A stretch of DNA of 64,000 bases. It comes from an uncultured Candidatus Rokubacteria bacterium (GTDB lineage: Bacteria; Methylomirabilota; Methylomirabilia; Rokubacteriales; CSP1-6). Each line of letters starts with the position of its first letter. Positions within the stretch are counted from its first letter, which is position 1. The position numbers and the translations under genes were made by a program. The DNA is taken from contig CAVYTA010000007.1 of the NCBI GenBank assembly GCA_963771355.1, forward strand, positions 608,001-672,000. Reading direction: 5' to 3'. Under the pieces are notes generated by a model, which made no database searches, was not told the origin of the DNA, and was given only the letters and a program-made list of their open reading frames with translations. Shown here in pieces: positions 4,618 through 20,517 of the stretch.

Positions 4618-4632
4618 CGGCACGCTCCTTGC
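4618..4632 (+). promoter_or_regulatory. sigma54 -24/-12 promoter
   Basis: CGGCACGCTCCTTGC (GG-N10-GC) upstream of SD AAGGAGG and ATG 4665. Confidence 0.75.
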
Positions 4633-4664
4633 CCCTGAGTGGAGCAAGGAAAGGAGGCCGACCC

Positions 4665-4991
4665 ATGTTGAAGAGCATGAAGGAGTGTCTCGGCTACACG
4701 ATCCTCGCCACCGACGGCGAGATCGGGGAAGTGAGCGACTTCCTTCTCGACGACGAGCTCAAGCTCCGCTACCTCGTCATCGACACCGGGCGCTGGCTGC
4801 CCGGCAAGAAGGTGATGCTTTCCACCGCCTGGATCAGCTCGGTGGATCCTCAGAAACAAACGGTGGTCATGAACATCGACAAGAAGCGCATCGAGGAAGG
4901 CCCCCTCTACGAGAACGAGCACGTGCTCGACCGCGAGTACGAGACGCGGCTGCACGAACACTATCGGTACCCGCCGTACTGGCTGATCTGA
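4665..4991 (+). CDS. PRC-barrel domain protein
   Basis: GYTILATDGEIGEVSDFLLDD..RYLVIDTGRWLPGKKV pattern; strong SD. Confidence 0.85.
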   Translation: MLKSMKECLGYTILATDGEIGEVSDFLLDDELKLRYLVIDTGRWLPGKKVMLSTAWISSVDPQKQTVVMNIDKKRIEEGPLYENEHVLDREYETRLHEHYRYPPYWLI

Positions 4992-5004
4992 GCGGGAGGA
5001 CACC

Positions 5005-5238
5005 ATGGGACGTTGTGAGGTTTGCGGGAACGAGTACCGGAAGACGCTGGAGATCAAGTACGAGGGCCGCGTGGCCACCTTCGACTCCTTCGAATGCGCG
5101 ATTCACGCGATGGCCCCCACCTGCGAGCACTGTGGATGCCGTGTGATCGGGCATGGCGTCGAGGTGGGCGAGCGCATCTTCTGCTGCGCCAACTGCGCCC
5201 AGATGGTCGGGATCAGTGAGAAGGCCGTCAATGCCTGA
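5005..5238 (+). CDS. Small Cys-rich metal-binding protein (prokaryotic metallothionein-like)
   Basis: CEVCGN..FDSFECAIH..CEHCGC..FCCANCA; SD GGGAGG. Confidence 0.8.
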   Translation: MGRCEVCGNEYRKTLEIKYEGRVATFDSFECAIHAMAPTCEHCGCRVIGHGVEVGERIFCCANCAQMVGISEKAVNA

Positions 5239-5719
5239 GCGCGGGGCCCGCTTCGGGGGGCACCCGGTCCATCCGGCCCTGGTGAGCCTCCCCATCGGGC
5301 TCTGGATCTTCTCCCTGGCCGCCGACGTCGTGCGAGGGCTGGGGGGCGGCCCCGTCTGGCGAGACCTGGCGCTGTACACCCTCGGCGCCGGGATCGTGGG
5401 CGCGCTGATCGCCGCCGTGCCGGGCTTCATCGACTACTTGTCGATCACCGACGCTCGGGTGCGTGACATCGCGGTCGCCCACATGGTGACCATGCTCGTC
5501 GTGCTCGGCGTCTTCGCGTCCAGCTTCTGGCTCCGCTGGATCGGCACCCTGAGCGCCCTGCCGGTGGCCTTGTCGGTCCTCGGCGTGGCCCTCCTCGGCG
5601 TCGGCGCCTGGTTGGGGGGCGAGATGGTCTTTGTCCACGGTCAGGGGATGGCCGCCCATCCCCGCCGGAAAATCGACTCACGTGAAGAGACGGGCCCCCC
5701 GCGAAGCCGGGCCGCCTGA
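5231..5719 (+). CDS. DUF2231-type membrane protein
   Basis: GHPVHPALVSLPIGLW, four hydrophobic segments, GAWLGGEMVF; overlaps upstream stop. Confidence 0.8.
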   Translation: MPERGARFGGHPVHPALVSLPIGLWIFSLAADVVRGLGGGPVWRDLALYTLGAGIVGALIAAVPGFIDYLSITDARVRDIAVAHMVTMLVVLGVFASSFWLRWIGTLSALPVALSVLGVALLGVGAWLGGEMVFVHGQGMAAHPRRKIDSREETGPPRSRAA

Positions 5720-5730
5720 GAGGAGACCGC

Positions 5731-6475
5731 ATGCAGGCCGAAATCGCAGCGCAGAACGACCGGGGCCGAGAGGTGAACATCGGGCAGATCGAGCGTGTGG
5801 CTTCCGTCGGCCTGGGAGCGGCGCTGGTGGTGGTGGGGCTGGCGCTGCGGTCGCGCCGGGGCCTGGGTCTCGCGCTCACCGGTGCCGGCATGGCCTATCG
5901 AGGCCTCGGCGGGCGGTGCCTCGTGTACCGGGCGCTGGGGATCCACGGCGCCAGCGGCAAGCCCACGGCGACCGGCAATCTCGGCGTGAAGGTGGAGCGC
6001 TCGGCCCCCATCGACGCGCCCCCGGAGAAGCTCTACGCCTTCTGGCGTGACTTCCGGAACCTGCCCATCGTCATGCCCAATCTCGAGCGCGTGGAGGTGC
6101 AGTCGGACACACGCTCCCACTGGGTGGTGAAGGGGCCCCCTCGGCACCGCGTTCGAGTGGGACGCCGAGATCATCAACGACGTGCCCAACGAGCGCATCG
6201 CCTGGCGGACGACGGAGGGCGCGCGCGTGGAGCACGCCGGCTCGGTGCGCTTCGAGCCGCGCCCGGATGGCGGCACCATGGTGTGGGTCGCCCTGCAATA
6301 CAACGCCCCGGGCGGCGAGTTCACCCACATGGTGTCCAAGCTCTTCGGGGAGGATCCGGGGAAGCGGCTGGAAGAGGATCTCGAGCGGCTGCGAGAGGCG
6401 TTCGGACGGGCTCACGAGGACCGTGACGGGCTGCAGCCGAAGACCGCCGACGCCCTGGGGTATCGATCGTCCTGA
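5731..6475 (+). CDS. DUF2892/YgaP-like membrane region + SRPBCC (cyclase/dehydrase) protein; +1 frameshift in C-run 6136-6140
   Basis: NIGQIERVAS..GRCLVYRALGI; LYAFWRDFRNLP..SHWVVKGP then, after removing one C, LGTAFEWDAEIINDVPNERIAW..GSVRF. Confidence 0.8.
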
Positions 6476-6566
6476 CCTATTGACGGTCGCGCATCGGGGG
6501 CGGCCGGCCGGGTAAAAATAGATCTAGACACGGGGGCTAGAGTAAAGACAGGTGCCCCCGTTGACG

Positions 6567-7658
6567 ATGCCACCGGCCCGCCGCTCCCGCCCCCGCGTCC
6601 TTGCGATCGTGCTGGCATTGACGCTCGGGCTGGGCCTGGTAGGGGCCGCGGGCTCGCTCCATGCCGAGCGCGAGCCGCTGCGGGGCGTGGTCGAGTCCCG
6701 TCCCGCCGACGCCCCCCGCACCCGCACGGTTTTCCGCAACCAGGATCCGCACTTCACGCGCGGACCGTTCTTCACCCGGCTTCAGACCTTCGCCACCGGC
6801 ATGACCTGGCTCATCGCCGAGACTCGGGTGGCGGCGCTGCCCTCCGCGCGTCCGGACCTGGAGCGCCTCCGGTCCGCGGGAGGGGCACCCAGCGTCACCT
6901 GGGTCGGGCACGCCACGGTGCTCGTCCAGCTCGACGGCGTGACCTTTCTCACCGATCCCACCTGGAGCGACGTCTCGGGGCCCTTCGGGGTCATCGGCGT
7001 GAGCCGCTACACGCCGCCCGGCGTCCGCTTCGAGGACCTGCCGCGGATCGATTTCGTCCTCATCTCGCATGACCACTACGACCACCTCGACGAGGCCACC
7101 GTGAAGCGGCTGGCCCAGACCTTCAACTCGCGCTTCATCGTGCCGCGGGGGATCGGGGCGTGGCTGCGCGACCGGGGCATCACCAATGTCGAGGAGATGG
7201 ACTGGGGCGAGCGCACGCGCATCAAGGGGCTCACCGTGGTGTGCACGCCCGCCCAGCACGGCTCGGGCCGCACGCTCGTCGATCAGGGCCGGCGTCTCTG
7301 GTCCTCCTGGGCGGTGCTCGGGTCCAAGCGCTTCTACTTCGGGGGCGACACCGGCTACTTCGCACATTTCCGCGAGACCGGCGATGCGCTGGGGCCCTTC
7401 GACCTGGCGGCGCTCCCCATCGGCTCCTACACGCCGCGCTCGACTTCGCGCGCCGTGCACTTGAATCCCGAAGAGGCGCTCCAGGCCTGGGAAGATCTTC
7501 GCGCCCGCGAGTTCCTGGGCATCCACTGGGGGACGTTCACGCTCGCCCGCGAGCCGTATGACGAGCCCCCGGCCCGCATCGCTGCCGAAGTGGCACGGCG
7601 AGGCCTTCCCGCCGAGCGTATCTGGGTGCCCAAGCCCGGTCTCACCCTCGACTGGTAG
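6567..7658 (+). CDS. MBL-fold metallo-hydrolase (NAPE-PLD/RomA-like), signal peptide
   Basis: TWVGHAT, ISHDHYDHLD, PAQH, FGGDTGY, LPIGSY, IHWGTF. Confidence 0.88.
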   Translation: MPPARRSRPRVLAIVLALTLGLGLVGAAGSLHAEREPLRGVVESRPADAPRTRTVFRNQDPHFTRGPFFTRLQTFATGMTWLIAETRVAALPSARPDLERLRSAGGAPSVTWVGHATVLVQLDGVTFLTDPTWSDVSGPFGVIGVSRYTPPGVRFEDLPRIDFVLISHDHYDHLDEATVKRLAQTFNSRFIVPRGIGAWLRDRGITNVEEMDWGERTRIKGLTVVCTPAQHGSGRTLVDQGRRLWSSWAVLGSKRFYFGGDTGYFAHFRETGDALGPFDLAALPIGSYTPRSTSRAVHLNPEEALQAWEDLRAREFLGIHWGTFTLAREPYDEPPARIAAEVARRGLPAERIWVPKPGLTLDW

Positions 7659-7668
7659 TCGAAGTCTC

Positions 7669-7684
7669 TGGCAGCCCCCTTGCA
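7669..7684 (+). promoter_or_regulatory. sigma54 -24/-12 promoter
   Basis: TGGCAGCCCCCTTGCA (GG-N10-GC), intergenic, upstream of SD GGGGAGGT and ATG 7744. Confidence 0.7.
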
Positions 7685-7743
7685 GTGCTCTCTCTGATGG
7701 TCGGAATCTGCCTTTCATTTCTGATCAATAGGGGAGGTGCATT

Positions 7744-8097
7744 ATGGCGAAGGAAAAGCAGCCTGAACGCGCCGATCTTGGCCCCGACGATGGGAGCGTA
7801 GGCTTCGCACCCGACCGGGATGGCTTCGGAGGAACTGAGCCGCCCAGACCGGACGCCGCCATCCTCCGCGACATCGTCGAGCGGATCGGCCGGCACCCCG
7901 AGCTCGATTCCGGCGGCTGCGAGATCGTGGTGAAGAAGGGCGAGGTGCGGCTGGCGGGCGTGGTGCCGAGCGGGGATGCTCGGCGGCAGATCGAGGATCT
8001 CTGCCTGTCCGTGTCCGGGGTCTGGGAATGCGAGAACGGACTGCGAGTGCGCCGGGGCGCTACGTCAGGCGGCCGAGTGGACCCAGATCGAGGTTGA
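7744..8097 (+). CDS. BON domain protein (no signal peptide)
   Basis: PDAAILRDIVERI..EIVVKKGEVRLAGVV..SVSGVWECENGLRV. Confidence 0.75.
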   Translation: MAKEKQPERADLGPDDGSVGFAPDRDGFGGTEPPRPDAAILRDIVERIGRHPELDSGGCEIVVKKGEVRLAGVVPSGDARRQIEDLCLSVSGVWECENGLRVRRGATSGGRVDPDRG

Positions 8098-8152: not shown

Positions 8153-8551
8153 TCAACGAGTGGAGGCATCCACGATCCGGGTGAGGGCCGAGACGCTCCG
8201 ATCGAGCACGTCGGCGGCCTGATGGACCGTGGCGGGGTTCTCGGCATGCTCGCGGAGCACGCCGATCCACCCGGCGATGGCGTTGAGCGGCGTGCGGAGG
8301 GCGTGCGCGAGGAGCTCGCGATCGTCTTCCGCCGAGCGAATCAGGATGTCGAGATCGGCCTGGAGCGCACGGAGGCGGTGGGCGATCGGGTCCGTCTCGT
8401 GACCGCCCGGTGCCCTGTCTTCGAACTCGGCGGCCAGGTGCTGCAGCCCGGACCGGACATCATCAAGGATGGCCTGCCGAGCCGAACGCGGCCCATCGGC
8501 CGCGCTGGGAACGGGCTCGGCTTCTCGAGGAATCACGTGAGGGCGTGCCAT
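8153..8551 (-). CDS. Stand-alone HisKA (DHp) domain protein, no HATPase domain
   Basis: LAHALRTPLNAIAGW H-box followed by a second helix (QAADVLDRSVSALTRIVD); ends 55 bp from a convergent gene; has its own sigma54 promoter motif. Confidence 0.72.
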   Translation of the reverse strand: MARPHVIPREAEPVPSAADGPRSARQAILDDVRSGLQHLAAEFEDRAPGGHETDPIAHRLRALQADLDILIRSAEDDRELLAHALRTPLNAIAGWIGVLREHAENPATVHQAADVLDRSVSALTRIVDASTR

Positions 8552-8566: not shown

Positions 8567-8582
8567 TGCAACTGACGTGCCC
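8567..8582 (-). promoter_or_regulatory. sigma54 -24/-12 promoter for the DHp-only gene
   Basis: Minus strand GGGCACGTCAGTTGCA. Confidence 0.75.
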
Positions 8583-8622: not shown

Positions 8623-8725
8623 CGTGAAGGGGCCAGGGAAGAAATCACCCGGCACCCCTATTTGGGGTGTGTAAGAACTTCCCCGGAGCCTTGCGCTAAG
8701 CCACGGGGTTCGGCAAAATTGGGTC

Positions 8726-10081
8726 ATGACCCGTGTGCTCGTCGCAGACGACGACCAAGACTCATGTCAGGCGCTGTCGGCCCTTCTCTCCGGATGGGGC
8801 TACGAGGTGGCAGAGGCGGCGGATGGGAACGAAGCGCTGGACCGGGCCATTGTGTTCCGCCCGTCGCTGATCGTCACCGACCTCGTGATGCCCGGGATGG
8901 ACGGGCTCGCCTTGCTCAAGGCCCTTCGCGTCGAACTACCCGCCTCCACCGTGATCGTCCTCACCGGCCATGCCACCATCGAGACCGCGGTGGCGGCCAT
9001 GCGGGATGGCGCCTACGACTACCTCCCCAAGCCGGTGGACCTTCGGCGGCTCCGCGCCCTGGTGGACAAAGCACTCGAGCAGTCCCAGGTGCTCCGCGAG
9101 GTGACGCTCCTCCGCCGCCAGCTCGGCGGCACCCAGGCCATGGGGACCCTGATCGGGGCGAGCGAGCCCATGCAGGAGATCTATAAGACCATCGAGCAGG
9201 CGGCCTCGACCTCCGCCCCGGTCCTGATCTCGGGAGAGAGCGGCACCGGCAAGGAGCTGGCTGCGCGCACCATTCACTCGCTTTCCGTCCGGGGCAAGGG
9301 GCCGTTCGTGGCCATCAACTGCGGGGCCGTCCCGGAGACCCTGCTCGAGAGCGAGCTCTTCGGCCACGAGCGGGGCGCCTTCACCGGTGCGGTGGAGCGG
9401 CGCGCGGGCTATTTCGAGCTCGCGGACGGGGGCACGCTGTTCCTGGACGAGATCGCCGAGATGAGCGGGGCGCTGCAGGCCAAGTACCTGCGCGTGCTCC
9501 AGGACGGCGTGGTGCGCCGCCTCGGCGGGCGGGCGGAGCTGAAAGTCGACGTGCGCATCATCGCCGCCACGAACCGGGACCCGCGGGAGTCCATCAAGCA
9601 GGGGGCGTTCCGGGAGGATCTCTACTACCGGCTCAACGTGTTCAGCTTCACGATGCCGCCCCTCCGCGTGCGCAAGGGGGACATCCCGCTCCTCGCCGAG
9701 GCCTTCGTGACGGAGTTCGTCGGCAAGTACGACCGCGCGGCCAAGGGACTCAGCGCGGAGGCGCTGGATAGGCTGGGCCGGCACCGCTGGCCCGGCAACG
9801 TGCGCGAGCTGCGGAACTGCATCGAGCGCGCGGTGGTGGGCTGCACCAGTGCCGAGCTCACGGCCGACCTGCTGCCGCTTGATCTCCCGCTGCTCCCCGA
9901 GCCGGCCGGGGCGACGGCGCCTTCGCCTCCGCCCCTGAGCCTCGACGAAGCCGAGCGTCTCCACATCTTGCGCACGCTCGCGGCACTGGGGAGCAACAAG
10001 ACGCGGACAGCGGAGAGCCTGGGCATCAGCCTCAAGACCCTCCACAACAAGCTACGCCGGTATCGCGAATCGCCGGGCTGA
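8726..10081 (+). CDS. sigma54-dependent response regulator (NtrC/AtoC family: REC-AAA+-Fis HTH)
   Basis: VLVADDD..TDLVMPGMDG; GESGTGKE; ESELFGHERGAFTGA; LFLDEI; WPGNVREL; NKTRTAESLGISLKTLHNKL. Confidence 0.95.
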   Translation: MTRVLVADDDQDSCQALSALLSGWGYEVAEAADGNEALDRAIVFRPSLIVTDLVMPGMDGLALLKALRVELPASTVIVLTGHATIETAVAAMRDGAYDYLPKPVDLRRLRALVDKALEQSQVLREVTLLRRQLGGTQAMGTLIGASEPMQEIYKTIEQAASTSAPVLISGESGTGKELAARTIHSLSVRGKGPFVAINCGAVPETLLESELFGHERGAFTGAVERRAGYFELADGGTLFLDEIAEMSGALQAKYLRVLQDGVVRRLGGRAELKVDVRIIAATNRDPRESIKQGAFREDLYYRLNVFSFTMPPLRVRKGDIPLLAEAFVTEFVGKYDRAAKGLSAEALDRLGRHRWPGNVRELRNCIERAVVGCTSAELTADLLPLDLPLLPEPAGATAPSPPPLSLDEAERLHILRTLAALGSNKTRTAESLGISLKTLHNKLRRYRESPG

Positions 10082-10101: not shown

Positions 10102-12087
10102 CTACCGGAATATCCCGCGGAACCACTGGAAGATGTCCTTCACCACCGGGGCATCCGCGAAGAGCTCGCGCTCACAGGGCGGCGGCTCGCTGCCCTGTCG
10201 GAAGGCCTCGTTGATCGCCCCGTCGCTCCCGCACGCGCGGCGACCGGTGCCCGACTCCACCGACGCCATGACGATACCGGGCGGCGTGGTGAATGGGCGG
10301 GGTGGGGCCCGGCGCACGGCGGCCTGCATCACGGTGGCCCAGATGGGAAGCGCGATGTCCGAGCCCGTCATCCCGATGGATCGGCCGTCGTCGGCGCCCA
10401 CCCAGACGCCCACCACCAGGTCCGGCGTGTACCCGATGAACCAGGCATCGCGCAACCCGTCCGTGGTTCCGGTCTTGCCCGCCGTCACTTCCTGAAGCCC
10501 CCAGCGTGCGCTCGATCCGCCCGTGCCACGCCGCATCACTCCGCGGAGCATATGGGTCACGATGAACGCCGATTCCGCGGACACCGCGCGATCGGGGCGC
10601 GGCTGTTCGCGCAGCGTCGCCTGCGGACCCGCGTCATCGAGTGTGGTCGGCCGCACCCGGAGGCCACCGTTGGCCAGGGTCGCGAAGGCGGTGGTCATCT
10701 CCAGAAGGGTGACCTCGGACGTCCCCAGCGCCAGAGAGGGCACCGCGGCGAGCCGGCTCTCGATGCCCATGGCCCCCGCCACCTGCACGACCTGCCGCAT
10801 GCCGACCGCTTGCCCGACCAGCGCCGCCGGCACGTTGAGCGAGTCCTCGAGGGCGCGGCGTATGGTCACCGGGCCGCGGAACTGTCCGTCGATGTTGTGG
10901 GGCGACCAATCGCCCCCGACGGCGGGAATGACGATGGGCTCATCGGAGACCACGCTGGCGGCCGTGAGGCGGTCGCCCCGTGACTCGAAGGCGGCCAGAT
11001 AGACGAGGGGCTTGAACAGCGAGCCCGGCTGGCGCCGCGCCTTCACCGCGTGGTTGAACTCGCTCGTCGTGTAGTGCCGCCCGCCCACCAGGGTGCGGAC
11101 CCGGCCGGTGCCCGGCTCCATCGCGATCACCGCCGCCTGGAGCGTCCCCGAGCGCAGACCCTTCCGGGAGCGCTCGGCCCTCGCCAGCTGATCGCGGACC
11201 GCCGCCTCCGCGATCTCCTGGAGCGAGCGATCGAGGCTGGTGGTGAGGCGCCCGCCCGGCACGCCGCCGACCAGCCGGCGGGCGGTCTCCTCGCGCGCCA
11301 GCTCGATGAACCAGGGCGCGCGCGACGGCGGCGCGGTGGGCGGGCGGAGCGGGCGCGCCATCGCGAGCTTTGCGTCAGGCTCCGTGGCAACGCCCTGCGC
11401 CACCATGGCGTCGAGCACGCGGTCGCGGCGGACGCGAACGAGGGTGGGTTCGTCCGAGTACACCCGATTCGGGGCCCGAATGGCCGCGGCCAGCAGCGCA
11501 GCCTCGTCGAGCCGGAGGGCGGAGATGTCCTTGCCCAGGAGGTGGCGTGCGCCCGCCGCCACGCCCAGCACGGCGGCGTCGCGCTCCTGCCCCAGATAGA
11601 CGGTATTGAGGTACGTCTCGAGGATGCGCTCCTTGCTATAGCGCATCTCCAGCAGCAGGGCGATCGCGACTTCCCGCACCTTTCGGGTCCAGGTGCGCTC
11701 CCGGGTCAGGAAGAGACCACGGGCGAGCTGCTGGGTGATGGTGCTCGCTCCCCGGACCACCTCCCCGCCGCGCGCATTGTGAACGGCGGCCCGCGAGACA
11801 GCGAGGAGATCCACGCCGAGGTGGTTCATGAAGCGGCGGTCCTCCGCCGCGATCACCGCGCCGACCACGACGGGCGGCATCTGGTCGAGCGGGAGCCAGA
11901 TCTGATAGCGGCCGTTCAACCCATGAAAGGTGGCGATCTCACGGCCCTGCGCGTCCAGGTACACGACGGGCAGGCTCGCTTCGCTCCCGTCGGGGAGGGG
12001 GTAGGACCACCAGCCCCACGCCAGGACGAACACCGCGACACTGGCCACGACCGCGAGAGAGAGAAGCGCGACGTATCGAATTCGCAC
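10102..12087 (-). CDS. Class A penicillin-binding protein (transglycosylase/transpeptidase)
   Basis: EDRRF, GASTITQQL, RKVRE, YLNTVYLG; SLFK (SxxK), SLN, KTGT. Confidence 0.93.
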   Translation of the reverse strand: MRIRYVALLSLAVVASVAVFVLAWGWWSYPLPDGSEASLPVVYLDAQGREIATFHGLNGRYQIWLPLDQMPPVVVGAVIAAEDRRFMNHLGVDLLAVSRAAVHNARGGEVVRGASTITQQLARGLFLTRERTWTRKVREVAIALLLEMRYSKERILETYLNTVYLGQERDAAVLGVAAGARHLLGKDISALRLDEAALLAAAIRAPNRVYSDEPTLVRVRRDRVLDAMVAQGVATEPDAKLAMARPLRPPTAPPSRAPWFIELAREETARRLVGGVPGGRLTTSLDRSLQEIAEAAVRDQLARAERSRKGLRSGTLQAAVIAMEPGTGRVRTLVGGRHYTTSEFNHAVKARRQPGSLFKPLVYLAAFESRGDRLTAASVVSDEPIVIPAVGGDWSPHNIDGQFRGPVTIRRALEDSLNVPAALVGQAVGMRQVVQVAGAMGIESRLAAVPSLALGTSEVTLLEMTTAFATLANGGLRVRPTTLDDAGPQATLREQPRPDRAVSAESAFIVTHMLRGVMRRGTGGSSARWGLQEVTAGKTGTTDGLRDAWFIGYTPDLVVGVWVGADDGRSIGMTGSDIALPIWATVMQAAVRRAPPRPFTTPPGIVMASVESGTGRRACGSDGAINEAFRQGSEPPPCERELFADAPVVKDIFQWFRGIFR

Positions 12088-12100
12088 GAGCTAGGACAGG

Positions 12101-12115
12101 GCAAGACTGGTGCCG
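12101..12115 (-). promoter_or_regulatory. sigma54 -24/-12 promoter for the PBP gene
   Basis: Minus strand CGGCACCAGTCTTGC, 13 nt before GTG start. Confidence 0.72.
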
Positions 12116-12199: not shown

Positions 12200-12217
12200 C
12201 CCGGTAGCCCTTACCAG
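12200..12217. promoter_or_regulatory. Candidate enhancer (UAS) GGTA-N5-TACC
   Basis: CCCGGTAGCCCTTACCAG, 14/18 identical to the 16379/20385 element, between divergent sigma54 motifs. Confidence 0.55.
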
Positions 12218-12288: not shown

Positions 12289-12304
12289 GGGCGTGCCTCT
12301 TGCA
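12289..12304 (+). promoter_or_regulatory. sigma54 -24/-12 promoter-like motif
   Basis: GGGCGTGCCTCTTGCA (GG-N10-GC, perfect TTGCA). Confidence 0.55.
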
Positions 12305-12317: not shown

Positions 12318-12470
12318 ATGAGCGCCTTAGAGCGTCGACCGCCACCGCCTCCACAGCCGCCGCCGCCCCCGGGACCCCCCGAGCCGCCGCCACCTCCGTC
12401 GCCTCCCCCGCCGCCGGTGGTCGAATACTTCAGCCCCGCCGGGATCTGCGTGGCCAGTACCTGGCGGTGA
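12318..12470 (+). CDS. Putative 50-aa proline-rich small protein
   Basis: MSALERRPPPPPQPPPPPGPPEPPPPPSPPPPPVVEYFSPAGICVASTWR; ATG about 3 nt after the predicted sigma54 TSS. Confidence 0.4.
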   Translation: MSALERRPPPPPQPPPPPGPPEPPPPPSPPPPPVVEYFSPAGICVASTWR

Positions 12471-12699
12471 GTCGCGGCGCCAGAATCCACGCCGCGCCCG
12501 CCAGCAGCAGCGCGAGCGCGAATCCCCCCGTCTGACGAGCGGGAAGCCAGGTCCAGCCCGCGAGGGCGTGCCGGCGACGATCGAGCTCGGCCACCAGATC
12601 GTCGAGCCGCTCCCGGACCCCCGAGATCTCCTCTCCGAGTGCGCTGACGCGGTCCCCGGCGCCGTTGGCTTCCACTACGCGAGTCGTTCCTTCGCCCAT
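12430..12699 (-). CDS. Small coiled-coil/TM protein (DUF3618-like partner of holin-family genes)
   Basis: EEISGVRERLDDLVAELDRRRH + TM segment; overlaps upstream holin-like gene end. Confidence 0.6.
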   Translation of the reverse strand: MGEGTTRVVEANGAGDRVSALGEEISGVRERLDDLVAELDRRRHALAGWTWLPARQTGGFALALLLAGAAWILAPRLTARYWPRRSRRG

Positions 12700-14141
12700 T
12701 GCAGGTCCTCCTTGACGGTCTTGCGCGTGAGATCCAGCGGTGCCTGCACGCGGCGGCTCCAGGCCACCGCCCCCAGGACGGCGGCCACGACCAGCAGCAG
12801 CCCGCCCAGGGCCAGCGCGGCGACCCAGGCCGGCAGCCAGGCGGCCAGCGCGAGGACGGCGGCCATCAGCAGCAGATTGAGCGCGAGCAGGGCCAGAAGC
12901 GCCGCGGCGCCGAACAGCTTGACCATGCCGAGCGCGGCGTGGAAATCCTCGTCGAGCTCGGCGCGCGCCAGCTCTACCTCTTTATGGATGAGGACGGAGC
13001 TGAGGCCGACGATGCGGCGCATGAGCGCCACCGTGGAGAGCGCCCGCGGATTGTCCGCCGGCGCCGTGGTCACCGGGGTGGGGGCCATCGAAGGTGCCAT
13101 GATGTTGTCCTTTCCGAGTAGACGCGCCTCCAGCAGCTGCGGCCGGCCGGCCAGCGCCCGGTCGAGCTGCAGTATCTGCCGATAGACGACCTGCCACTCA
13201 TCGAACGGGAGCGGCCGCTCTGCCATCTCGGCCGTGATCGCATCGAGCCGTGAGCGGAGCGCCCAGGCATTGCGGTGCGCCTCCGGATCTCGCCGGTAGG
13301 CCGCCCACACTCGCTGGATCTGGCGCTCGATGTCCTGCGCCTCCGCGGTGACGGACTGGAACATGTCGGGCCGCCCGCTGAGCGCCTCCACCACCAGCAC
13401 GTGGACGCGCGCGGATGCCTCGACGGGGCCCCGCAGCAGCAGCGCGTTCGGATACAGCGCCAGCTCGAGCTCGCCGGCACGGAAATAGGCGGACTCGGCG
13501 GTGAGGAGGCCGGAGAGCGCGCTGCCCCCGATGCGCGTGAGGATGCGCGTGGGCAGCGCGCTCCACCAGGGCGGGCTCAGGGCCACCACGGAGATGCCAT
13601 GGCGGCGCAGCGTCTCGGCGACCAGCGCCGCCGCGGCGGGGTACGACTCGGACGTGGTCACCAGCGGCACGTGGACGTCCCGGTGTCCACGGAGCGCCGA
13701 GGCCACGCGCAGGACGGGGACGGTGACCAGGAGGACGAGAAAGGCCAGGGCCAGCCCTGCGGTGATGGGGAATCCGCGCAGGATGCTTTGGAAGAGACCC
13801 GGGCGCATTGCCCCTTTCTCCGCGGGCGGCGGTCGCAGCCCGACGCCAATCGAGATCGGGACGGCTAGCGCCAGCGCGATCCAGCCCAGGCGGACGAGCC
13901 ACGCGGGTAGAGCGTCCGGCAGCGGCACGAAGGCGAGGAAGAAGGCCGCGGCCTTGGGCGCCGCCACGCCGATCAAGAGCAGCGGCCAGGCGGCGGCCGA
14001 CGCCACCAGTCCCGACAGGAGCATCCGGCGTCGTCCGCTCACGCGGCCGAAGAGCGCCACCACCGCCCAGTCGAACAGAGCGGTGAGGATCTTCCCCACC
14101 GACCGGCTGATGAGGCTGAGGATGGCCTGGATCAGCGCCAT
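12675..14141 (-). CDS. Membrane protein with C-terminal phage-holin-family (YqjE-like) domain
   Basis: MALIQAILSLIS.. multi-TM N-terminus; C-terminus LIHKEVELARAEL..AWVAALALG..TVKEDLQWAKERLA; internal SD+ATG at 13100. Confidence 0.72.
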   Translation of the reverse strand: MALIQAILSLISRSVGKILTALFDWAVVALFGRVSGRRRMLLSGLVASAAAWPLLLIGVAAPKAAAFFLAFVPLPDALPAWLVRLGWIALALAVPISIGVGLRPPPAEKGAMRPGLFQSILRGFPITAGLALAFLVLLVTVPVLRVASALRGHRDVHVPLVTTSESYPAAAALVAETLRRHGISVVALSPPWWSALPTRILTRIGGSALSGLLTAESAYFRAGELELALYPNALLLRGPVEASARVHVLVVEALSGRPDMFQSVTAEAQDIERQIQRVWAAYRRDPEAHRNAWALRSRLDAITAEMAERPLPFDEWQVVYRQILQLDRALAGRPQLLEARLLGKDNIMAPSMAPTPVTTAPADNPRALSTVALMRRIVGLSSVLIHKEVELARAELDEDFHAALGMVKLFGAAALLALLALNLLLMAAVLALAAWLPAWVAALALGGLLLVVAAVLGAVAWSRRVQAPLDLTRKTVKEDLQWAKERLA

Positions 14142-14151
14142 GCGGGGCCCG

Positions 14152-15168
14152 TCAGGACTTCTTGCGCCGTCGCCGCGCCTCCCCGCGCCGCTTGCCGCGC
14201 GGGGCGCGGAGCGTCCGGAGCTGGGGGAGAATCTCCTCGGCGTAGAACTCGAAGAAGGCCTTCTGCTCCCGGCCGACCTGATGTACGCAGATGTGGTCGT
14301 AGCCCGCGTCGGCGTACTTGCGAATGGCGGCCAGATGCCGCGCGGGATCCGGTCCGCAGGTGATGGACTCCGCCACCTGCTCCTCGGTGACGAGCTCCGC
14401 CACCGACTCGAAGTGGGCGGGCAGCGGAAGCTCCCACGAGAGGTTACTTTCCATGGCGGAGGTGGGCCACTGCTCACGCGCGGTCCGGCGAGCGGTGGCC
14501 TCGTCCTTGGCATAGCAGACGGTCAGCTCCGCGTACCTTGGCTTGCCGGCCCCGCCCGCCTCGTCGAAGGCGGTCAGGAGCGAGGGATCCGGATCGGTGC
14601 CGATGACCCCGTCACCCAGACGGCCGGCCTGCTCGGCGCTGCGCGGGCCGCCCGCCGCCACGAAGAGTGGTGGCAGTACGTCGGGCAGCGTGTAGAGACG
14701 CGCGTTTTCCACCGTGAAGTAACGTCCGTGATGGCTCTGATTGCCCCCCTCCCAGAGCTGGCGGATCACTCCGATGGCTTCCTCCAGCCGCTCCTGCCGT
14801 ACCTCGGTCTCCGGCCATCCCTGCCCCACCACGTGCTCGTTCAGGTTCTCGCCCGTTCCCACGCCGAGGAAGAATCTCCCCGGCATGAGGGCCGCCGCGG
14901 TCGCGGCGGCCTGCGCGACGATGGCCGGATGCAGGCGCGTGGTGGGACAGGTAACCGCGGTACCGAGGGTCAGGCGCTGGGTCGCGTGGGCGATGGCGCC
15001 GATGACGCCCCACACGAAGGGACTCTGACCCTGCTTGTCGATCCAGGGGTGATAGTGGTCGGAGATGAGCGCGAAGCCGAAGCCCGAGTCCTGCGCCATC
15101 TGCGCATAGCGGACCAGGTCCAGCGGCGACTGCTCCTCGCTCGAGAGCTTGTAGCCGAGACTCAGCAT
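14152..15168 (-). CDS. F420-dependent LLM-class oxidoreductase (G6PDH-like family)
   Basis: GYKLSSEE, ISDHYHPW, GTAVTCP, GVGTGENLNEH. Confidence 0.88.
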   Translation of the reverse strand: MLSLGYKLSSEEQSPLDLVRYAQMAQDSGFGFALISDHYHPWIDKQGQSPFVWGVIGAIAHATQRLTLGTAVTCPTTRLHPAIVAQAAATAAALMPGRFFLGVGTGENLNEHVVGQGWPETEVRQERLEEAIGVIRQLWEGGNQSHHGRYFTVENARLYTLPDVLPPLFVAAGGPRSAEQAGRLGDGVIGTDPDPSLLTAFDEAGGAGKPRYAELTVCYAKDEATARRTAREQWPTSAMESNLSWELPLPAHFESVAELVTEEQVAESITCGPDPARHLAAIRKYADAGYDHICVHQVGREQKAFFEFYAEEILPQLRTLRAPRGKRRGEARRRRKKS

Positions 15169-15172
15169 GCTG

Positions 15173-15862
15173 CTAGCCGCCATTGCGCCGAAGGGCTGCG
15201 ATGCGATCGTCGGTGGCGGGATGGGTCGAGAAGAAGCCGCCCTCGCTTCCGCCCTCGGTCTGGAGCAGCCAGGTCAGCGTCTCTTCCATCACCTTCGGGG
15301 AATGCCCGGCGCGCTTGAGGAGCTCCGCCCCGTGCGCGTCGGCCTGGTACTCCTCCTGGCGGCCGTACGCCCGGGAGATGAGGGTGCCCGCCACCGGGGC
15401 GAGCTGACCGCTGCCCGGAATGATCTGATCGAGAATCACCATGCCGATGGCGACGCCCGTCTGCACGCGCTGCTGCTTGGCCACGTGGCGCAGGTCGTCA
15501 TGGGCCACCTCGTGGGCGAGGACGCCGGCCAGGTGCTGGTCATTGGCCTTGCGCAGGAGGCCGGTGGTGACGAGGAACTGCCCGTCGCCGGCGCTGCCCG
15601 CGTTGACGCGATCGTCGTCTACGATGGCGACCTTCACTTGATTCAGGGGCCGCTTGTTGTCGGCAGCCTGAAGGAGAGGCAGCATCACCCGCTTCAGCCG
15701 CTCGGCCTGGGCGGGATCGATGCGCGCGGTGGAGGACCGCGGCGCGCTCGCGGTGGGATTCCCGCCGCTCGACGACGACGGCGGGGCGGGGCTGGACACT
15801 GGCGCCGCGCAGGCGGCGGCGAGGGAGAACGCGGCGAGGAGCGCAGTGAGGGTGGTTTTCAT
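15173..15862 (-). CDS. M48-family Zn metalloprotease, probable lipoprotein
   Basis: LAAAC lipobox-like; VLAHEVAH; EYQAD; FSTHP. Confidence 0.85.
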   Translation of the reverse strand: MKTTLTALLAAFSLAAACAAPVSSPAPPSSSSGGNPTASAPRSSTARIDPAQAERLKRVMLPLLQAADNKRPLNQVKVAIVDDDRVNAGSAGDGQFLVTTGLLRKANDQHLAGVLAHEVAHDDLRHVAKQQRVQTGVAIGMVILDQIIPGSGQLAPVAGTLISRAYGRQEEYQADAHGAELLKRAGHSPKVMEETLTWLLQTEGGSEGGFFSTHPATDDRIAALRRNGG

Positions 15863-15867
15863 GGCGG

Positions 15868-16194
15868 CTACCCGCTCGTCTTCACGGAGAGATTGTTGAC
15901 CACCGCATTCACACCCTTCACGCTCCAGGCGATGTTCGAGGCGCGCTGCTTCATCTCCTGGCTGTCGACGAGCCCGTTGAGATAGACGGTCCGATGATTC
16001 GTGTCGACATCTACCTTGGTGAGGGTCGACACCTTCTCGGCGGCAAGCTTGGCCTTGACCTGGGTGGTGATGGTGGCGTCGTCGACGCTCTCCCCGGCGG
16101 TCTTGGCCACGCCGGAGGAGCAAGCGGCCAGGACCAGCATCGCCAGCAAAGCGACGGACAGCAGTCTCAGATCTCTCAGACGTAGCATGGCCAT
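15868..16194 (-). CDS. BON domain lipoprotein (OsmY-like)
   Basis: LAAC lipobox; DDATITTQVKAKL..VKGVNAVVNNL; SD AGGAG. Confidence 0.88.
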   Translation of the reverse strand: MAMLRLRDLRLLSVALLAMLVLAACSSGVAKTAGESVDDATITTQVKAKLAAEKVSTLTKVDVDTNHRTVYLNGLVDSQEMKQRASNIAWSVKGVNAVVNNLSVKTSG

Positions 16195-16257: not shown

Positions 16258-16272
16258 GCAAGTGATGTGCCA
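16258..16272 (-). promoter_or_regulatory. sigma54 -24/-12 promoter
   Basis: Minus strand TGGCACATCACTTGC (consensus). Confidence 0.85.
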
Positions 16273-16378: not shown

Positions 16379-16396
16379 GCCGGTAGTCCTGACCCG
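16379..16396. promoter_or_regulatory. Candidate enhancer (UAS), copy 1
   Basis: GCCGGTAGTCCTGACCCG, identical to 20385-20402, about 105 bp from each of two divergent sigma54 promoters. Confidence 0.65.
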
Positions 16397-16498: not shown

Positions 16499-16513
16499 TG
16501 GCACTGTGATTGC
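16499..16513 (+). promoter_or_regulatory. sigma54 -24/-12 promoter
   Basis: TGGCACTGTGATTGC (consensus). Confidence 0.85.
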
Positions 16514-16561
16514 GTGCTCCGGAACCCGTGCGCACCGCTTAGAAAAAGGGAGATCAAGGTC

Positions 16562-17296: not shown

Positions 17297-19168
17297 TCAG
17301 CGTGCCTCCTCCGGTACGGAGGACAGCTCGGGCCAGGAGGAGCGAGACTCCGCCGCGGCGGGGTCCTCCGGGCGGGCGGCGAGCCGCAGGGCCGCCGCAC
17401 GGGCCTTGATGAGCGACGTGACGAACGCGTCGGCTCCCGCGGCGCGGAGCGCGCGACGCCTCGCGGCAGTTCGCGCGACGCCGCACTGATAGACGAGGAT
17501 GGGTGTGTCCGGCGCCGCCTCGCGCAGCCGCTTCACGAGGTGGCGCAGGCGGCGGCCGCCGCCAGGACCGACGGCGCCGACGCAGACGAGGGCGGCGCCC
17601 GCTGCCTGGAGCGCGCCGACTGTCTCCACCGAAGGCGGACCCGGGGGAACGACGTGCACGAGGAAGCCGGCGGGGGTGAGCAGTCGTCCCAGCATGGCCA
17701 GCGCCGTCTCGTCCACCGCGTCACGAAGCGGCACCGCGGCCACCACCGTGGCGGCCGTCATCGAATCCGGCGCGCCCGCGGGCGCGGCCGGCGCATCGGC
17801 GGGCTCATACTCCACCAGCTTCCGGGTGACCTCCACGATACGCGCGTACTCCGCGCGCGAGAGCTGGCGCGCGAGCCGGTCGCGACGGGCGCGCGCGAGG
17901 GCGGGCAAGACCAGAGTGTCGAAGGCCGTCTCCAGGGAGGATGCCTTCACCGCCTCTGTCATCAGATCCGCCGCCTCGTTCTCGTCCCCGGCCAGCAGCC
18001 GCTGATAGAGGGTGACCGACGGCTTCACGCCTGAGTCGTCGCTCAGCAGGATCCCGATGAACTCGAGCCCGTCGACCGTCCGCGCGAAGACGACGAGGAG
18101 CACGGTCAAGGGCGTGGAGAGAACCAACCCAATTGGTCCCCACAGCCAGGTCCAGAAGGCGGCGCCGACCAGGAGCGCGAGCGCGGACACCCCGGCGCTC
18201 CAGCTGAAGAGCAGTGGCTCGAGCACGAAGGCCACGGTCACCTCGGTGACGATGAAGAGCCCCATGATGAGCAGCGGCCTGGTCCAGCCGTCGAAGACGG
18301 CCAGGCTCAGCATGATGGGAAGGAGCGCGGCCACCCACGCGCCGACGTAGGGGATGAAGCGCAGCATGCCCGCGAAGAAGCCGAGGGCAAGCGCGAAGGG
18401 CACGCCGAGGAGGTAGAGGCCCACGCCGATAGCGAGGCCGAAGCTTCCGTTGATGAGGGATTGCATGAGGAGGTAGCGGCTGATCCGATTGCCCGCCTCG
18501 TCGAGGAGCCGCGTGGTCGTCGCCAGATGGTGATGGCCGAAGAGTCGCACCACGCGCGCCCGGAGCTCTCGCTGCTGGATGAGGACGAAGAAGAGGAGAA
18601 CGATGACCAGGGTCGCCGAGCCGAGCGCCTCGAGCAGGTTCGGGATCGACCACAGCGCAGGCGAGGAGACCACCACCGGCACCGGCTTCTCGGCGCCGGG
18701 ATCGGGGGGGGTGCTTTTCTCGATTTGCTTCATGACGTCCTTGGCGGTGGCTTCCATCTTCTCCAGCGTCCCGCCGCGCCGCGCCTGCTGGATGTCCGAG
18801 ATCTTGCGGGTGATGGTCACCCGGTACTTCGGCAGCTCATTGGCGAGCGTGGCGATCTGAGCGGTGAGGGCCCAGCCCAGCGCGGCCGCGACGAGGAGGG
18901 CGAACAGGCCGACGGTCACCGCCGCCGGCACCCGCGGTAGGCCCCAACGCCGCAGGAGGTTCACCAGCGGAGTGAGGAGAAAGGCGAGCAGCAGCGCCAG
19001 CGCGACGGGGATCGCGACCACGCGCGCCCAGTAGAGACAGGCCACCGTCAGGACCATCCCGGCCAGGACGACGAAGCGCCGGCTGACGGCGGGGGTGGAG
19101 CGCGGGTGCCGCGGTGGCCGTCCGGCGCGCGGGCGCGCCGGCCCCCCCGCGGCACCCGCCCGGCTCAC
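17297..19168 (-). CDS. AI-2E family transporter with C-terminal cytoplasmic extension
   Basis: IPVALALLLAFLLTP, ISRYLLMQSLIN, LRFIPYVG, WTWLWGPIGLVLSTPLT, YQRLLAGD. Confidence 0.88.
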   Translation of the reverse strand: MSRAGAAGGPARPRAGRPPRHPRSTPAVSRRFVVLAGMVLTVACLYWARVVAIPVALALLLAFLLTPLVNLLRRWGLPRVPAAVTVGLFALLVAAALGWALTAQIATLANELPKYRVTITRKISDIQQARRGGTLEKMEATAKDVMKQIEKSTPPDPGAEKPVPVVVSSPALWSIPNLLEALGSATLVIVLLFFVLIQQRELRARVVRLFGHHHLATTTRLLDEAGNRISRYLLMQSLINGSFGLAIGVGLYLLGVPFALALGFFAGMLRFIPYVGAWVAALLPIMLSLAVFDGWTRPLLIMGLFIVTEVTVAFVLEPLLFSWSAGVSALALLVGAAFWTWLWGPIGLVLSTPLTVLLVVFARTVDGLEFIGILLSDDSGVKPSVTLYQRLLAGDENEAADLMTEAVKASSLETAFDTLVLPALARARRDRLARQLSRAEYARIVEVTRKLVEYEPADAPAAPAGAPDSMTAATVVAAVPLRDAVDETALAMLGRLLTPAGFLVHVVPPGPPSVETVGALQAAGAALVCVGAVGPGGGRRLRHLVKRLREAAPDTPILVYQCGVARTAARRRALRAAGADAFVTSLIKARAAALRLAARPEDPAAAESRSSWPELSSVPEEAR

Positions 19169-19266
19169 GGCCAGTTACCGGGAAGAAAGTCGAGCAGGAA
19201 CGCGATGGCCGCCAGGACAAGGACGAGGAAGACGTGGACGCCGGGTGGCTGCCGAAGGGTCAGCAT
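19165..19266 (-). CDS. 33-aa single-TM small protein (not in ORF track)
   Basis: MLTLRQPPGVHVFLVLVLAAIAFLLDFLPGNWP; SD GAGGGA; TGA overlaps GTG start of the AI-2E gene (GTGA). Confidence 0.6.
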   Translation of the reverse strand: MLTLRQPPGVHVFLVLVLAAIAFLLDFLPGNWP

Positions 19267-19274
19267 GGTGTCCC

Positions 19275-19607
19275 TCACCCTTTCTTCTGGACGATGAGAT
19301 GGTTGACGACGCCGTTCACGTGAGTGACGCTCCAGGCGATCTCGGCCGCGCGCTGGCGCGTCTCCTCGCTGTCCACCACGCCGGTCAAGTACACGGTGCG
19401 CAGGTTGGTCTCCACCCCCACGCGGGTGAGGGTGGCGAGCTTCTCGGCGGCGAGCCGGCTCTTCACCGCCGCGGTGATCTGCGCGTCATCCGCGTTCTCG
19501 CCGGCAGTCTGGCCGGTCAGGGACGAGCAGGCCGCCAGCAGGGTCACCAGCGCCAGCAGGGTGAGCGTCGCGAACGGGGACCGAGATCGCCGGGACCGCG
19601 GGCGCAT
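19275..19607 (-). CDS. BON domain lipoprotein (paralog of 15868-16194)
   Basis: LAAC lipobox; DDAQITAAVKSRLAAEK..VNGVVNHL. Confidence 0.88.
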   Translation of the reverse strand: MRPRSRRSRSPFATLTLLALVTLLAACSSLTGQTAGENADDAQITAAVKSRLAAEKLATLTRVGVETNLRTVYLTGVVDSEETRQRAAEIAWSVTHVNGVVNHLIVQKKG

Positions 19608-19609
19608 CG

Positions 19610-20200
19610 TTATTTCCTCGGTTCCCCGAGCTGCTCGAGGAGGGTCTTGAGCTCGTCGGCGTGCTCCTCCTCGTTGCCGAGCACACCCTCGAGCATGCGC
19701 CGGGTGGTCGGATCGCCCTCGCCCACGAACCGGATCATCTCCAGGTACGACTCGATGGCAATGCGCTCTGCCACCAGGTTCTCTCGAATCATGTCCACGA
19801 GGTCTCCGCCCTCCACGTACTCGCTGTGGCTGCGCGTGGCCAGGCCCTCGGGGGAGAAGTCGGGCTCCCCGCCGAGCTGCACGATGCGCTTGGCGATCTT
19901 GTCCGCGTGGCCCTGCTCCTCGGTGGCGTGCTTCATGAATTCCTCGGCGACCGCCTGGGCGTGGATTCCCGCCGCCATGAAGTGATGCCGGCGGTAGCGG
20001 AGCACGCAGATGAGCTCGGTGGCGAGCGCGGTATTGAGGAGGCGGATGACCGCCTCACGATCCACCTGGTGGCTCTCGGTCACGGCGCCGTCATCCATGT
20101 GCTCGCGGGCCCGCCGACGCAGCTCCTTCACGTCGGACAGGAAGTCCCCGCCGCCTCCCTCCTGCCCCTTCCCCTTGTCGCGCATGTCCCCAGTTTTCAC
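19610..20200 (-). CDS. Ferritin-like / bacterioferritin-family protein
   Basis: ALATELICVLRY, EEQGHAD, ENLVAERIAI, EEEHAD; SD AAGGAG before GTG. Confidence 0.88.
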   Translation of the reverse strand: MKTGDMRDKGKGQEGGGGDFLSDVKELRRRAREHMDDGAVTESHQVDREAVIRLLNTALATELICVLRYRRHHFMAAGIHAQAVAEEFMKHATEEQGHADKIAKRIVQLGGEPDFSPEGLATRSHSEYVEGGDLVDMIRENLVAERIAIESYLEMIRFVGEGDPTTRRMLEGVLGNEEEHADELKTLLEQLGEPRK

Positions 20201-20260
20201 GTCGCGCTCCTTTTGGGTGTTCGAGCTCCGGCCGTTCGCGTCCAGACAGACGATCGAACG

Positions 20261-20275
20261 GCAAACCCCGTGCCA
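20261..20275 (-). promoter_or_regulatory. sigma54 -24/-12 promoter
   Basis: Minus strand TGGCACGGGGTTTGC (consensus). Confidence 0.85.
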
Positions 20276-20368
20276 GCGAGGGACGGGTGGGGGCGGTCGA
20301 ACTGAAGCCTGCGGAATCTCAGGAAGCCGGGACAGACGATCCCGCGGCGACGACGCCGGCGCCAAGCA

Positions 20369-20402
20369 TGTCAAACTTACCGAAGCCGGTAGTCCTGACC
20401 CG
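20369..20402. promoter_or_regulatory. Candidate enhancer (UAS), copy 2 plus tandem half-matching site
   Basis: TGTCAAACTTACC (20369-81) + GCCGGTAGTCCTGACCCG (20385-402). Confidence 0.65.
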
Positions 20403-20502
20403 ATGCCGCTCCGAGTGGGTGGTGGCGCATCCGGGGGGTCGCCTCCGCGAGAGCGTGTGAAAAATCAGCGCGGAGCCCGCGGAGTGGCAGGTGATGGCGG
20501 GC

Positions 20503-20517
20503 TGGCACGGAAGATGC
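20503..20517 (+). promoter_or_regulatory. sigma54 -24/-12 promoter for cls
   Basis: TGGCACGGAAGATGC. Confidence 0.75.

Follow-up and report, generated by a model that had tools for sequence, protein, structure and literature searches.

Conserved sigma-54 promoter sequences, most with a common upstream palindrome, precede general-stress-type genes in a Rokubacteria island

We analyzed a 64,000-nucleotide stretch of the genome of an uncultured Candidatus Rokubacteria bacterium (G000:C7:608001-672000, hereafter the window; genome of 5.5 Mb, 70% GC, 99.8% complete). A sequence-only reading of this stretch had marked nine sigma-54-type (-24/-12) motifs around one NtrC-type activator gene and had proposed that the general stress response of the lineage is wired to sigma-54 through that activator. 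The motifs belong to a 40-kb island. They are conserved sigma-54 promoter sequences, most of which have a common palindrome upstream, and we consider it probable, on the evidence below, that this palindrome is bound by a three-member clade of NtrC-type activators that would switch the island on after phosphorylation. Near-identical DNA is present in public soil and rhizosphere sequencing runs.

RESULTS

Organization of the locus

Genes were called with a purpose-built hexamer-based caller (5,309 calls), and both the gene starts and the label "intergenic" rest on its calls. Sigma-54 sites were scored with a matrix set from the sigma-54 consensus, with the island sites kept out of training (maximum score, 19.6; working cut-off, 11.5); that consensus is identical to the one printed in the accessible part of PMC4371752. 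Palindrome scores in the list that follows come from a held-out model, described further on. Minus-strand sites were cited by their lowest coordinate in the earlier reading, where the site at 12100..12115 is listed as 12101. The palindromic sites carry no strand. The features are as follows.

4508..4524: palindromic upstream site, likely an activator enhancer, 102 bp before the 4618 promoter; held-out score 9.0, with 1.9% of the background as high
4618..4633 (+): sigma-54 site of the PRC-barrel operon; 13.8 (10.5-13.8 in 4/4 orthologs)
4665..6475 (+): genes for PRC-barrel, 77-aa Cys-rich, DUF2231, and YgaP-SRPBCC proteins (Pfam); one-base split near 6129, the indel being seen in a public contig
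6609..7658 (+): metallo-beta-lactamase-fold gene (Pfam) with no sigma-54 site of its own, and none above 1.1 in 5/5 orthologs
7669..7684 (+): sigma-54 site for the BON gene at 7744-8097, the least supported of the nine; 14.7, with a held-out palindrome score of only 3.5
7744..8097 (+): BON-domain protein (PF04972)
8153..8551 (-): stand-alone HisKA (DHp) protein, His retained, without the ATPase domain (PF00512); its ATG lies 17 nt past the site
8567..8582 (-): sigma-54 site for the HisKA-only gene; 14.2 (14.2 also in comparison genome G003; none found for two distant homologs)
8635..8651: palindrome, 61 bp upstream of the 8582 site; 12.2
8691..8719 (+): sigma-70-family-like promoter, TTGCGC-N17-CAAAAT, just before the activator ATG and below the consensus threshold of the sigma-70 scan
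8726..10081 (+): REC-AAA+-HTH sigma-54 activator, with D52, Walker A/B, and GAFTGA intact and helix ISLKTLHNKL; one of three paralogs
10102..12048 (-): class A penicillin-binding protein (PBP), transglycosylase plus transpeptidase (Pfam)
12100..12115 (-): sigma-54 site for the PBP gene; 11.8 (9.1-11.8 in 6/6 orthologs; weak)
12201..12217: palindromic upstream site common to the divergent 12115 and 12289 promoters; 12.7
12289..12304 (+): weak sigma-54 site, ATG 15 nt after the GC; 8.5 (relatives 9.7-11.8, with the ATG at 14-15 nt, 5/5)
12318..12470 (+): 50-aa proline-rich small protein, likely leaderless; same peptide in five relatives; no Pfam match
12430..16194 (-): operon of BON/OsmY-like protein, M48 peptidase, F420-type LLM oxidoreductase, YqjE-like holin-X fusion, and a small open reading frame (ORF) (Pfam, NCBIfam)
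16258..16272 (-): sigma-54 site for the BON/OsmY operon; 17.1 (15.5-17.1 in 4/4 orthologs)
16380..16396: palindromic upstream site CCGGTAGTCCTGACCCG, common to 16272 and 16499; 14.2; identical over 17 bp to 20386-20402
16499..16514 (+): sigma-54 site for the acidic small ORF at 16560-16826; 14.4 (one equivalent, 13.5 in G003)
17297..20185 (-): operon of ferritin/Dps-like protein, BON protein, short ORF, and AI-2E family transporter (Pfam, NCBIfam)
20261..20275 (-): sigma-54 site for the ferritin-like operon; 17.0 (17.0 in comparison genome G002; kept in 1/4 orthologs)
20386..20402: palindromic upstream site common to 20275 and 20503; 14.2
20503..20518 (+): sigma-54 site for cls; 14.1 (12.5-14.1 in 4/4 orthologs); ATG 15 nt after the GC, no Shine-Dalgarno sequence
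20532..21791 (+): cardiolipin-synthase-like PLD gene (cls; PF13091); one-base split near 21476 (indel in public contigs); unbroken, ~410 aa, in comparison genome G006

One-base differences from public contigs at 6129, 16804-16814, and 21476 (SRPBCC gene, acidic ORF, and cls, respectively) suggest assembly or strain frameshifts. At the left edge lies a large gene with GH94 and glucoamylase domains, presumably a cyclic-glucan synthase, which spans window positions 1-4487 and ~604300-608000 of the same contig and is split by frameshifts; it encodes ~2,880 aa in two relatives (G001 and G004), and in relatives a sigma-54 site and a strong palindrome precede it. A search of the window against Rfam gave no matches. 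No tRNAs were found in loci L002 or L031, and the GC content of the island is 69% versus 71%, so there is no clear sign of a recently acquired element.

The nine motifs have the sequence properties of sigma-54 promoters

Each of the nine strings put forward earlier occurs once, where it had been placed, and all nine have the sigma-54 hallmarks, with GG and GC at -24/-12, exact spacing, and resemblance to TGGCAC-N5-TTGC. Eight score between 11.8 and 17.1, and the site at 12289 is weak. At 70% GC the bare GG-N10-GC pattern is uninformative, with 395 matches in the island versus 441 per 16 kb genome-wide. By the matrix, eight sites of at least 11.5 were observed in the 1,500 bp of delimited island intergenic DNA; 1,000 dinucleotide shuffles gave 0.13 on average and never more than 2. 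A sigma-70 consensus scan returned one match where 0.6 were expected. All nine sites lie upstream of likely gene starts, as had been noted, including three that fall within longest-ORF extensions with no better start. The statement that such motifs are missing from 22-64 kb of the window also held up: none of the 15 transcription-unit heads there reaches 11.5 (best, 10.3). Nor is the density typical of the genome, as 11 of 20 unit heads in the extended island have a site, compared to 103 of 2,239 elsewhere, and the genome contains rpoN, in one copy.

We further compared the island with loci of the same genus, whose island proteins are 55-95% identical. Most sites recur before the orthologous genes (PRC-barrel, 4/4; PBP, 6/6, weak; 12289, 5/5; BON operon, 4/4; cls, 4/4), and the genes without a site here also have none in relatives (activator, 0/6; metallo-hydrolase, 0/5). 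The ferritin site is kept in only one of four; in the other three, relocation of the gene to another operon accounts for the loss. For the site at 7669 no BON-gene ortholog was found in the relatives' loci.

That these matches arose by chance, or form the ordinary background of a genome rich in such sites, might be suggested by the ~205 intergenic sites of at least 11.5 and the 23 full-length sigma-54 activators that we counted genome-wide. The shuffle, orientation, density, and conservation tests and the module-specific palindrome contradict this explanation, which has next to no probability in our estimation, and the nine sites are almost certainly functional sigma-54 promoters as judged by these sequence criteria.

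The motif cluster itself was therefore real, but its upstream end had been set at 4618, and it continues for ~23 kb further upstream. The window contains half of the 40-kb island. In the other half, along with 11 more sites, are csbD, ligD, DUF6566, DUF3309, and genes for a BON-peptidoglycan-binding protein, a second activator, a lone receiver, and two hybrid kinases. Outside the island, katE, topoisomerase IB (topIB), glsB, one of the ku genes, and alpha-amylase-family genes also follow sigma-54 sites, as do second copies of csbD and cls. The cargo had been called typical of general stress, and the domain families found in the window and the upstream island bear this out: the markers CsbD, BON/OsmY, Dps-like, KatE, Ku/LigD, and cls are all present. 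A sigma-54 site precedes most of the stress marker genes, though not several copies of the BON, ku, and ferritin genes, and the palindrome is missing at katE, ku, topIB, and glsB.

The island is the densest part of a large sigma-54 regulon

Genome-wide, matches of at least 12 number 256 per Mb outside called genes versus 19 per Mb inside them, and in same-strand gaps the sites point to the next gene 68 times and away from it 2 times. This avoidance of called genes and this orientation show that the genome has a large real sigma-54 regulon. The densest 40 kb for sites is C7:590-630 kb, with 19 compared to 14 in the next.

Coding ORFs start 14-16 nt past the GC at 20 of 206 sigma-54 sites, compared to 4 at offsets 1-13, and these ORFs, which in the window are those at 12318 and 20532, have no Shine-Dalgarno sequence. 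The peak falls where sigma-54 transcription would be expected to start (12-14 nt after the GC), and it suggests that these mRNAs are leaderless.

Sites in this genome (L113-L171) also precede genes for type II secretion system/pilus ATPases, PEP-CTERM proteins, a sugar transferase, mreB, lpxC, lptC, bactofilin, and an ANTAR regulator with an ABC binding protein. On contig C2 (L330:401-481 and 5240-5320), two identical top-scoring sites (19.5) each lie just upstream of a c-di-GMP-I-GGC riboswitch. A second module, at C1:108000-136000 (L003, L004), has 11 sites, which precede genes of the Usp, CBS, BON-CBS, and release-factor-like families and related ones; it lies near a phosphoketolase gene and its own activator (C1:112072), none of its 11 promoters has the palindrome, and we take it to resemble a low-oxygen or dormancy gene set.

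Public RNA contigs from two studies cover island genes. In three RNA runs the interval between the two promoters had zero cover in both divergent pairs; empty bins occurred within genes too, however, and we do not count this as evidence. The same applies to two RNA contigs that end at 20237 and 20225, just inside the predicted start at ~20248, as contigs cannot map starts and the type of the comparison run is not on record.

A palindrome upstream of the promoters marks a sub-regulon

Sigma-54 requires an activator bound upstream. In 22 promoters of three distant same-genus genomes, the palindrome GGTAA-N3-TTACC was found de novo, with a likelihood of 85 compared to 28-31 for shuffled sequences; the same search on the 13 island regions of this genome alone rose only modestly above shuffles, and the relatives were needed. 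The held-out model was retrained on 21 promoters non-orthologous to the nine, to guard against ancestry bias, and its cut-off was the 95th percentile of 857 non-sigma-54 upstream regions. Eight of the nine window promoters exceed this cut-off, with 7669 failing. These correspond to five of six distinct sites, because three divergent pairs share one each. Outside the window the model accepts 8/11 upstream-island promoters, 36/175 other sigma-54 promoters, and 0/11 promoters of the Usp module. The palindrome lies 60-120 bp upstream of the sigma-54 site. These counts support the view that it marks a distinct sub-regulon. A tandem second site 14 bp from the palindrome was weak on average and is not claimed.

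The resident activator is one of three related paralogs

By its REC Asp, Walker A/B motifs, GAFTGA, and Fis-type HTH, the resident activator (8726-10081) is of the NtrC type. It falls below every NCBIfam equivalog cut-off listed (NtrC, AtoC, ZraR, FlbD, PrsR; for AtoC, 438 of 714 bits), and most of its named close homologs bear the label Candidatus Rokubacteria or Methylomirabilota. Homology to Pseudomonas PA1945 was considered and dropped, as the name occurred in none of the papers listed. With two paralogs it forms a group at 60-62% identity. In a tree of activators, the resident protein belongs to a branch confined to this genus, and the three paralogs cluster, at an SH-like approximate likelihood-ratio test (SH-aLRT) support of 98, with activators of the SLKTLYNRL type encoded in stress islands of Betaproteobacteria and Acidobacteriota. 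Syntenic counterparts of the third paralog, which has a Cache-HAMP kinase as its partner, are found across the order, and the helix of this paralog, ISLKTLHNKL, is identical to that of the resident protein. The second has its own sigma-54 site 15 nt before the ATG. No kinase adjoins the resident gene. Divergent from it is the HisKA-only gene (8153-8551), whose protein has shorter homologs in relatives and could be a phosphate sink or relay. The element at 8691-8719 reads, by eye, as TTGCGC with CA(G/A)A(C/A)T in 6/6 genomes.

Similar wiring occurs in other lineages

Using csbD as a reporter, we found a site of at least 11.5 in 19 of the 30 top loci of the order (26/30 at a threshold of at least 9), with 0/30 in the antisense control and 0/30 for EcfG-like boxes. 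In family f4 of the same order, 1/5 loci passes. Sigma-54 sites precede csbD in 7/30 loci of Burkholderiaceae (the family of a Burkholderia genome), four of them with palindrome scores of 10.7-15.1, and in 4/12 loci of Acidobacteriota (the phylum of one genome). In another Pseudomonadota sample the counts were 1/27 for sigma-54 and 10/27 for EcfG-like boxes; left out of it before counting were L294 (unpublished genome G263), L301 and L328 (weak partial matches), and L269 and L274 (already in the Burkholderiaceae set). The notion that this wiring is peculiar to one lineage is not supported, given the like arrangement in Burkholderiaceae and Acidobacteriota. The ferritin-like gene was tried and rejected as a cross-phylum reporter, with a count (2/80) equal to that of the antisense control; csbD worked better. 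Several distant ferritin-like loci are nonetheless rich in sigma-54 sites.

In Betaproteobacteria and Acidobacteriota, SLKTLYNRL-type activators sit in islands with CsbD, BON, DUF883, YqjE-like, DUF1328, otsA, Ku, and LigD genes. An Acidobacteriota island (L041) has 12 sigma-54 matches in 20 kb around ku, DUF1328, DUF3309, and a ferritin-like gene, and in an uncultured betaproteobacterium (L073:6036-7475, L249) rpoN itself lies inside a stress island with BON, ferritin-like, and cls genes and a clade activator. In Ralstonia solanacearum PSI07, rpoN2 adjoins two SLKTLYNRL-type activators and a DUF1328 gene. By synteny and helix motif this pair, which is not in the tree, would correspond to Rsp1667/Rsp1668, listed without function in the accessible part of PMC4676750. 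According to the accessible text of PMC4371752, R. solanacearum rpoN2 is rpoN1-dependent (sigma-54-dependent), is induced in minimal medium, and has a role called enigmatic. The corresponding text of PMC4745423 reports that in B. pseudomallei loss of rpoN2 abolishes katE expression and that an RpoN box is predicted before katE, and it raises cross-talk with RpoS.

Other stress sigma systems in the genome

The genome encodes an RpoS-like factor (C6:978504; L008) in the order pcm-acyP-nlpD-rpoS; its best NCBIfam match is RpoS, below the cut-off (309 versus 379 bits). Among 95 sampled genomes of the family, 64 keep it. The suggestion that sigma-54 stands in place of RpoS is not borne out, given this retention in canonical gene order. 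A second RpoD-like sigma factor of 491 aa is encoded at C6:1333846. Within 900 nt upstream of the rpoS-like, rpoN, and second rpoD-like genes no sigma-54 site scores above 5, and a Borrelia-type cascade was rejected. Of 16 sigma-70 matches in total, 3 belong to groups 1/2, 11 that were scanned are ECF-like, and 2 were not scanned. As for SigB partner switching, there are 0 SpoIIE phosphatase matches in this 99.8% complete genome, with control genomes positive. For the EcfG/PhyR/NepR system there are 0 HWE kinase matches (control genomes positive) in addition to the missing EcfG-like boxes at csbD, although no search was aimed at PhyR or NepR. By these criteria, the regulon belongs to neither the SigB nor the EcfG system.

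DISCUSSION

Taken together, these data are consistent with the following course of events. Sigma-54 holoenzyme would wait at closed promoters. Kinases would phosphorylate the receiver domain of the activator, candidates being the Cache-HAMP kinase encoded next to the paralog found across the order and, in the upstream half of the island, the two hybrid kinases. The activator would then bind the palindrome 60-120 bp upstream, one site often serving two divergent promoters, and ATP-driven opening would follow. The predicted output is membrane and envelope protection (BON/OsmY, CsbD, YqjE-like, cls, PBP) and iron sequestration (ferritin-like), with end-joining repair (LigD) and glucan or sugar enzymes in addition. 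Because sigma-54 sites also precede the genes for the second paralog, the two hybrid kinases, and the HisKA-only protein, feedback is likely. Starvation, drying, or osmotic stress could be the trigger.

Which activator drives the promoters bears on this course. The sequence-only reading named the resident protein alone, and that protein is intact, lies inside the island in the same-genus loci examined, and carries the recognition helix of the clade. Its branch is nevertheless a genus-level duplicate, one of three paralogs, another of which has the identical helix and a cognate kinase; moreover, four genomes of genus g30 are without this branch yet have the site and palindrome around their own paralogs and at csbD. 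Control by the resident activator alone is improbable on this evidence, and we infer control at the level of the clade, with positive feedback; the resident protein is probably a redundant or signal-specific duplicate. The role of the RpoS-like factor is the main rival question. It, or another sigma-70-family factor, could be the master switch that transcribes the activator, with the sigma-54 island as a lower tier. Such a cascade would accommodate the canonical gene order and retention of the RpoS-like gene and the resident activator's lack of a sigma-54 site in 6/6 orthologs alongside its conserved TTGCGC-N17-CA(G/A)A(C/A)T element, and RpoS/RpoN2 cross-talk at katE is discussed in the accessible text of PMC4745423. 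RpoD could read the same element equally well, however, the second paralog has its own sigma-54 site, and 13 family f4 genomes with sigma-54 sites in their islands gave no RpoS-like match at E<=1e-90, a threshold that a more divergent RpoS there might miss. We regard the cascade as unlikely. A narrower envelope/osmotic remodelling response or dormancy programme, in place of a general stress response, would fit the tendency of the palindrome targets to act in the membrane or periplasm or on sugars (cls twice, LPG synthase, PBP, DUF748, glycine-zipper, alpha-amylase family) and the lack of the palindrome at katE and ku. Against it stand the CsbD, LigD, ferritin-like, and DUF3309 genes with sites in the island, and the fact that csbD, marking EcfG control in 10/27 Pseudomonadota loci, reports general-stress wiring elsewhere; a restriction of this kind is very improbable.

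Several observations weigh against palindrome-directed control of a general-stress island by the activator clade, the reading that we prefer. The reach of sigma-54 in this genome extends to genes of the envelope, pilus, PEP-CTERM, and nitrogen classes, and it is in that respect a broad regulator; the island also carries non-classical cargo (PBP, M48 peptidase); and the RpoS-like factor is retained. By the first model, the palindrome at katE, glsB, topIB, and one ku scores just -1.8, 2.6, 5.5, and 5.8 although their sigma-54 sites are strong, so not all stress genes share it, and the other ku, four BON matches, and one ferritin gene have no site of at least 11.5 within 900 nt. The islands of family f4 are rich in sigma-54 sites with palindrome scores of at most 6.6. 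Ferritin-like homologs from other phyla had a direct site no more often than the antisense control (2). The csbD loci of the order were top-scoring matches, 11 of 30 from a single genus, and kin are not independent; the activator tree of 81 rows came from a quick search, with SH-aLRT as its only support and no bootstrap; and the matrix, thresholds, and gene calls were all made for this analysis. As a separate observation, f4 stress islands L254 and L255 have many sigma-54 sites and no match to GGTAA-N3-TTACC, and a different enhancer may have evolved in that family.

Implications

Descriptions of general stress responses present them as switches of sigma factors (RpoS, SigB, EcfG). The same cargo seems here to lie behind pre-loaded sigma-54 promoters fired by activator phosphorylation. 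Since survival genes stand behind sigma-54 sites, most with a common palindrome, a small family of ATP-driven activators, and not solely a stress sigma factor such as RpoS, likely controls the onset of the stress programme. Rapid and tightly controlled switching of this kind would be of use to soil bacteria exposed to drying and rewetting. A wider proposal, which we put forward tentatively, is that this is a fourth general-stress architecture, in which sigma-54 and one ancient activator clade (SLKTL[HY]N[KR]L helix, GGTAA-N3-TTACC) would run CsbD/BON/Dps/LigD in Methylomirabilota, part of Acidobacteriota, and Burkholderiales, with many of the mRNAs leaderless; it would also explain the orphan rpoN2 loci of Burkholderiales. 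The enhancer sequence and activator clade are concrete and also occur in cultured soil Paraburkholderia-type genomes, which makes the result testable. For the Burkholderiales rpoN2 locus, enigmatic according to the accessible text of PMC4371752, the finding offers a function. We found no account of a sigma-54 general-stress regulon in a literature search in which most subscription papers were not searchable and supplements were not covered. The accessible main text of PMC12316311 has no mention of this lineage, CsbD, or general stress, and nothing relevant was found in the accessible part of PMC5979394.

Comparison with known systems

The general stress regulons are those of RpoS in enterobacteria, SigB in Bacillota, and EcfG/PhyR/NepR in Alphaproteobacteria. 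With their cargo the island and its regulon share CsbD, BON/OsmY, YqjE-like, ferritin/Dps-like, cls, PRC-barrel, LigD/Ku, and KatE; the promoters differ, being -24/-12 elements with a common upstream palindrome instead of sigma-70-family boxes. With the two-component regulons of the NtrC family (NtrC, ZraR, AtoC; Aquifex NtrC proteins, PDB 4L4U and 1NY5), the system has in common the REC-AAA+-HTH architecture, GAFTGA, and a palindrome 60-120 bp upstream, but three paralogs and a broad protective regulon take the place of one metabolic operon. The RpoN2 loci of Burkholderiales likewise combine SLKTLYNRL-type activators and DUF1328 beside rpoN2 (R. solanacearum PSI07), and katE needs rpoN2 in B. 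pseudomallei (accessible text of PMC4745423); they have a dedicated second RpoN, compared to one rpoN here, and no general-stress regulon is described for them in the accessible text. In Myxococcus xanthus, according to the accessible part of PMC12754779, the sigma-54 activator PexR also replaces the usual regulator of stress genes (ahpC, katB); PexR is GAF-sensing and peroxide-specific with two targets, whereas a receiver-domain clade with many targets would act here. In these terms, the regulon appears to work like an NtrC-type regulon that carries cargo of the RpoS, SigB, and EcfG type.

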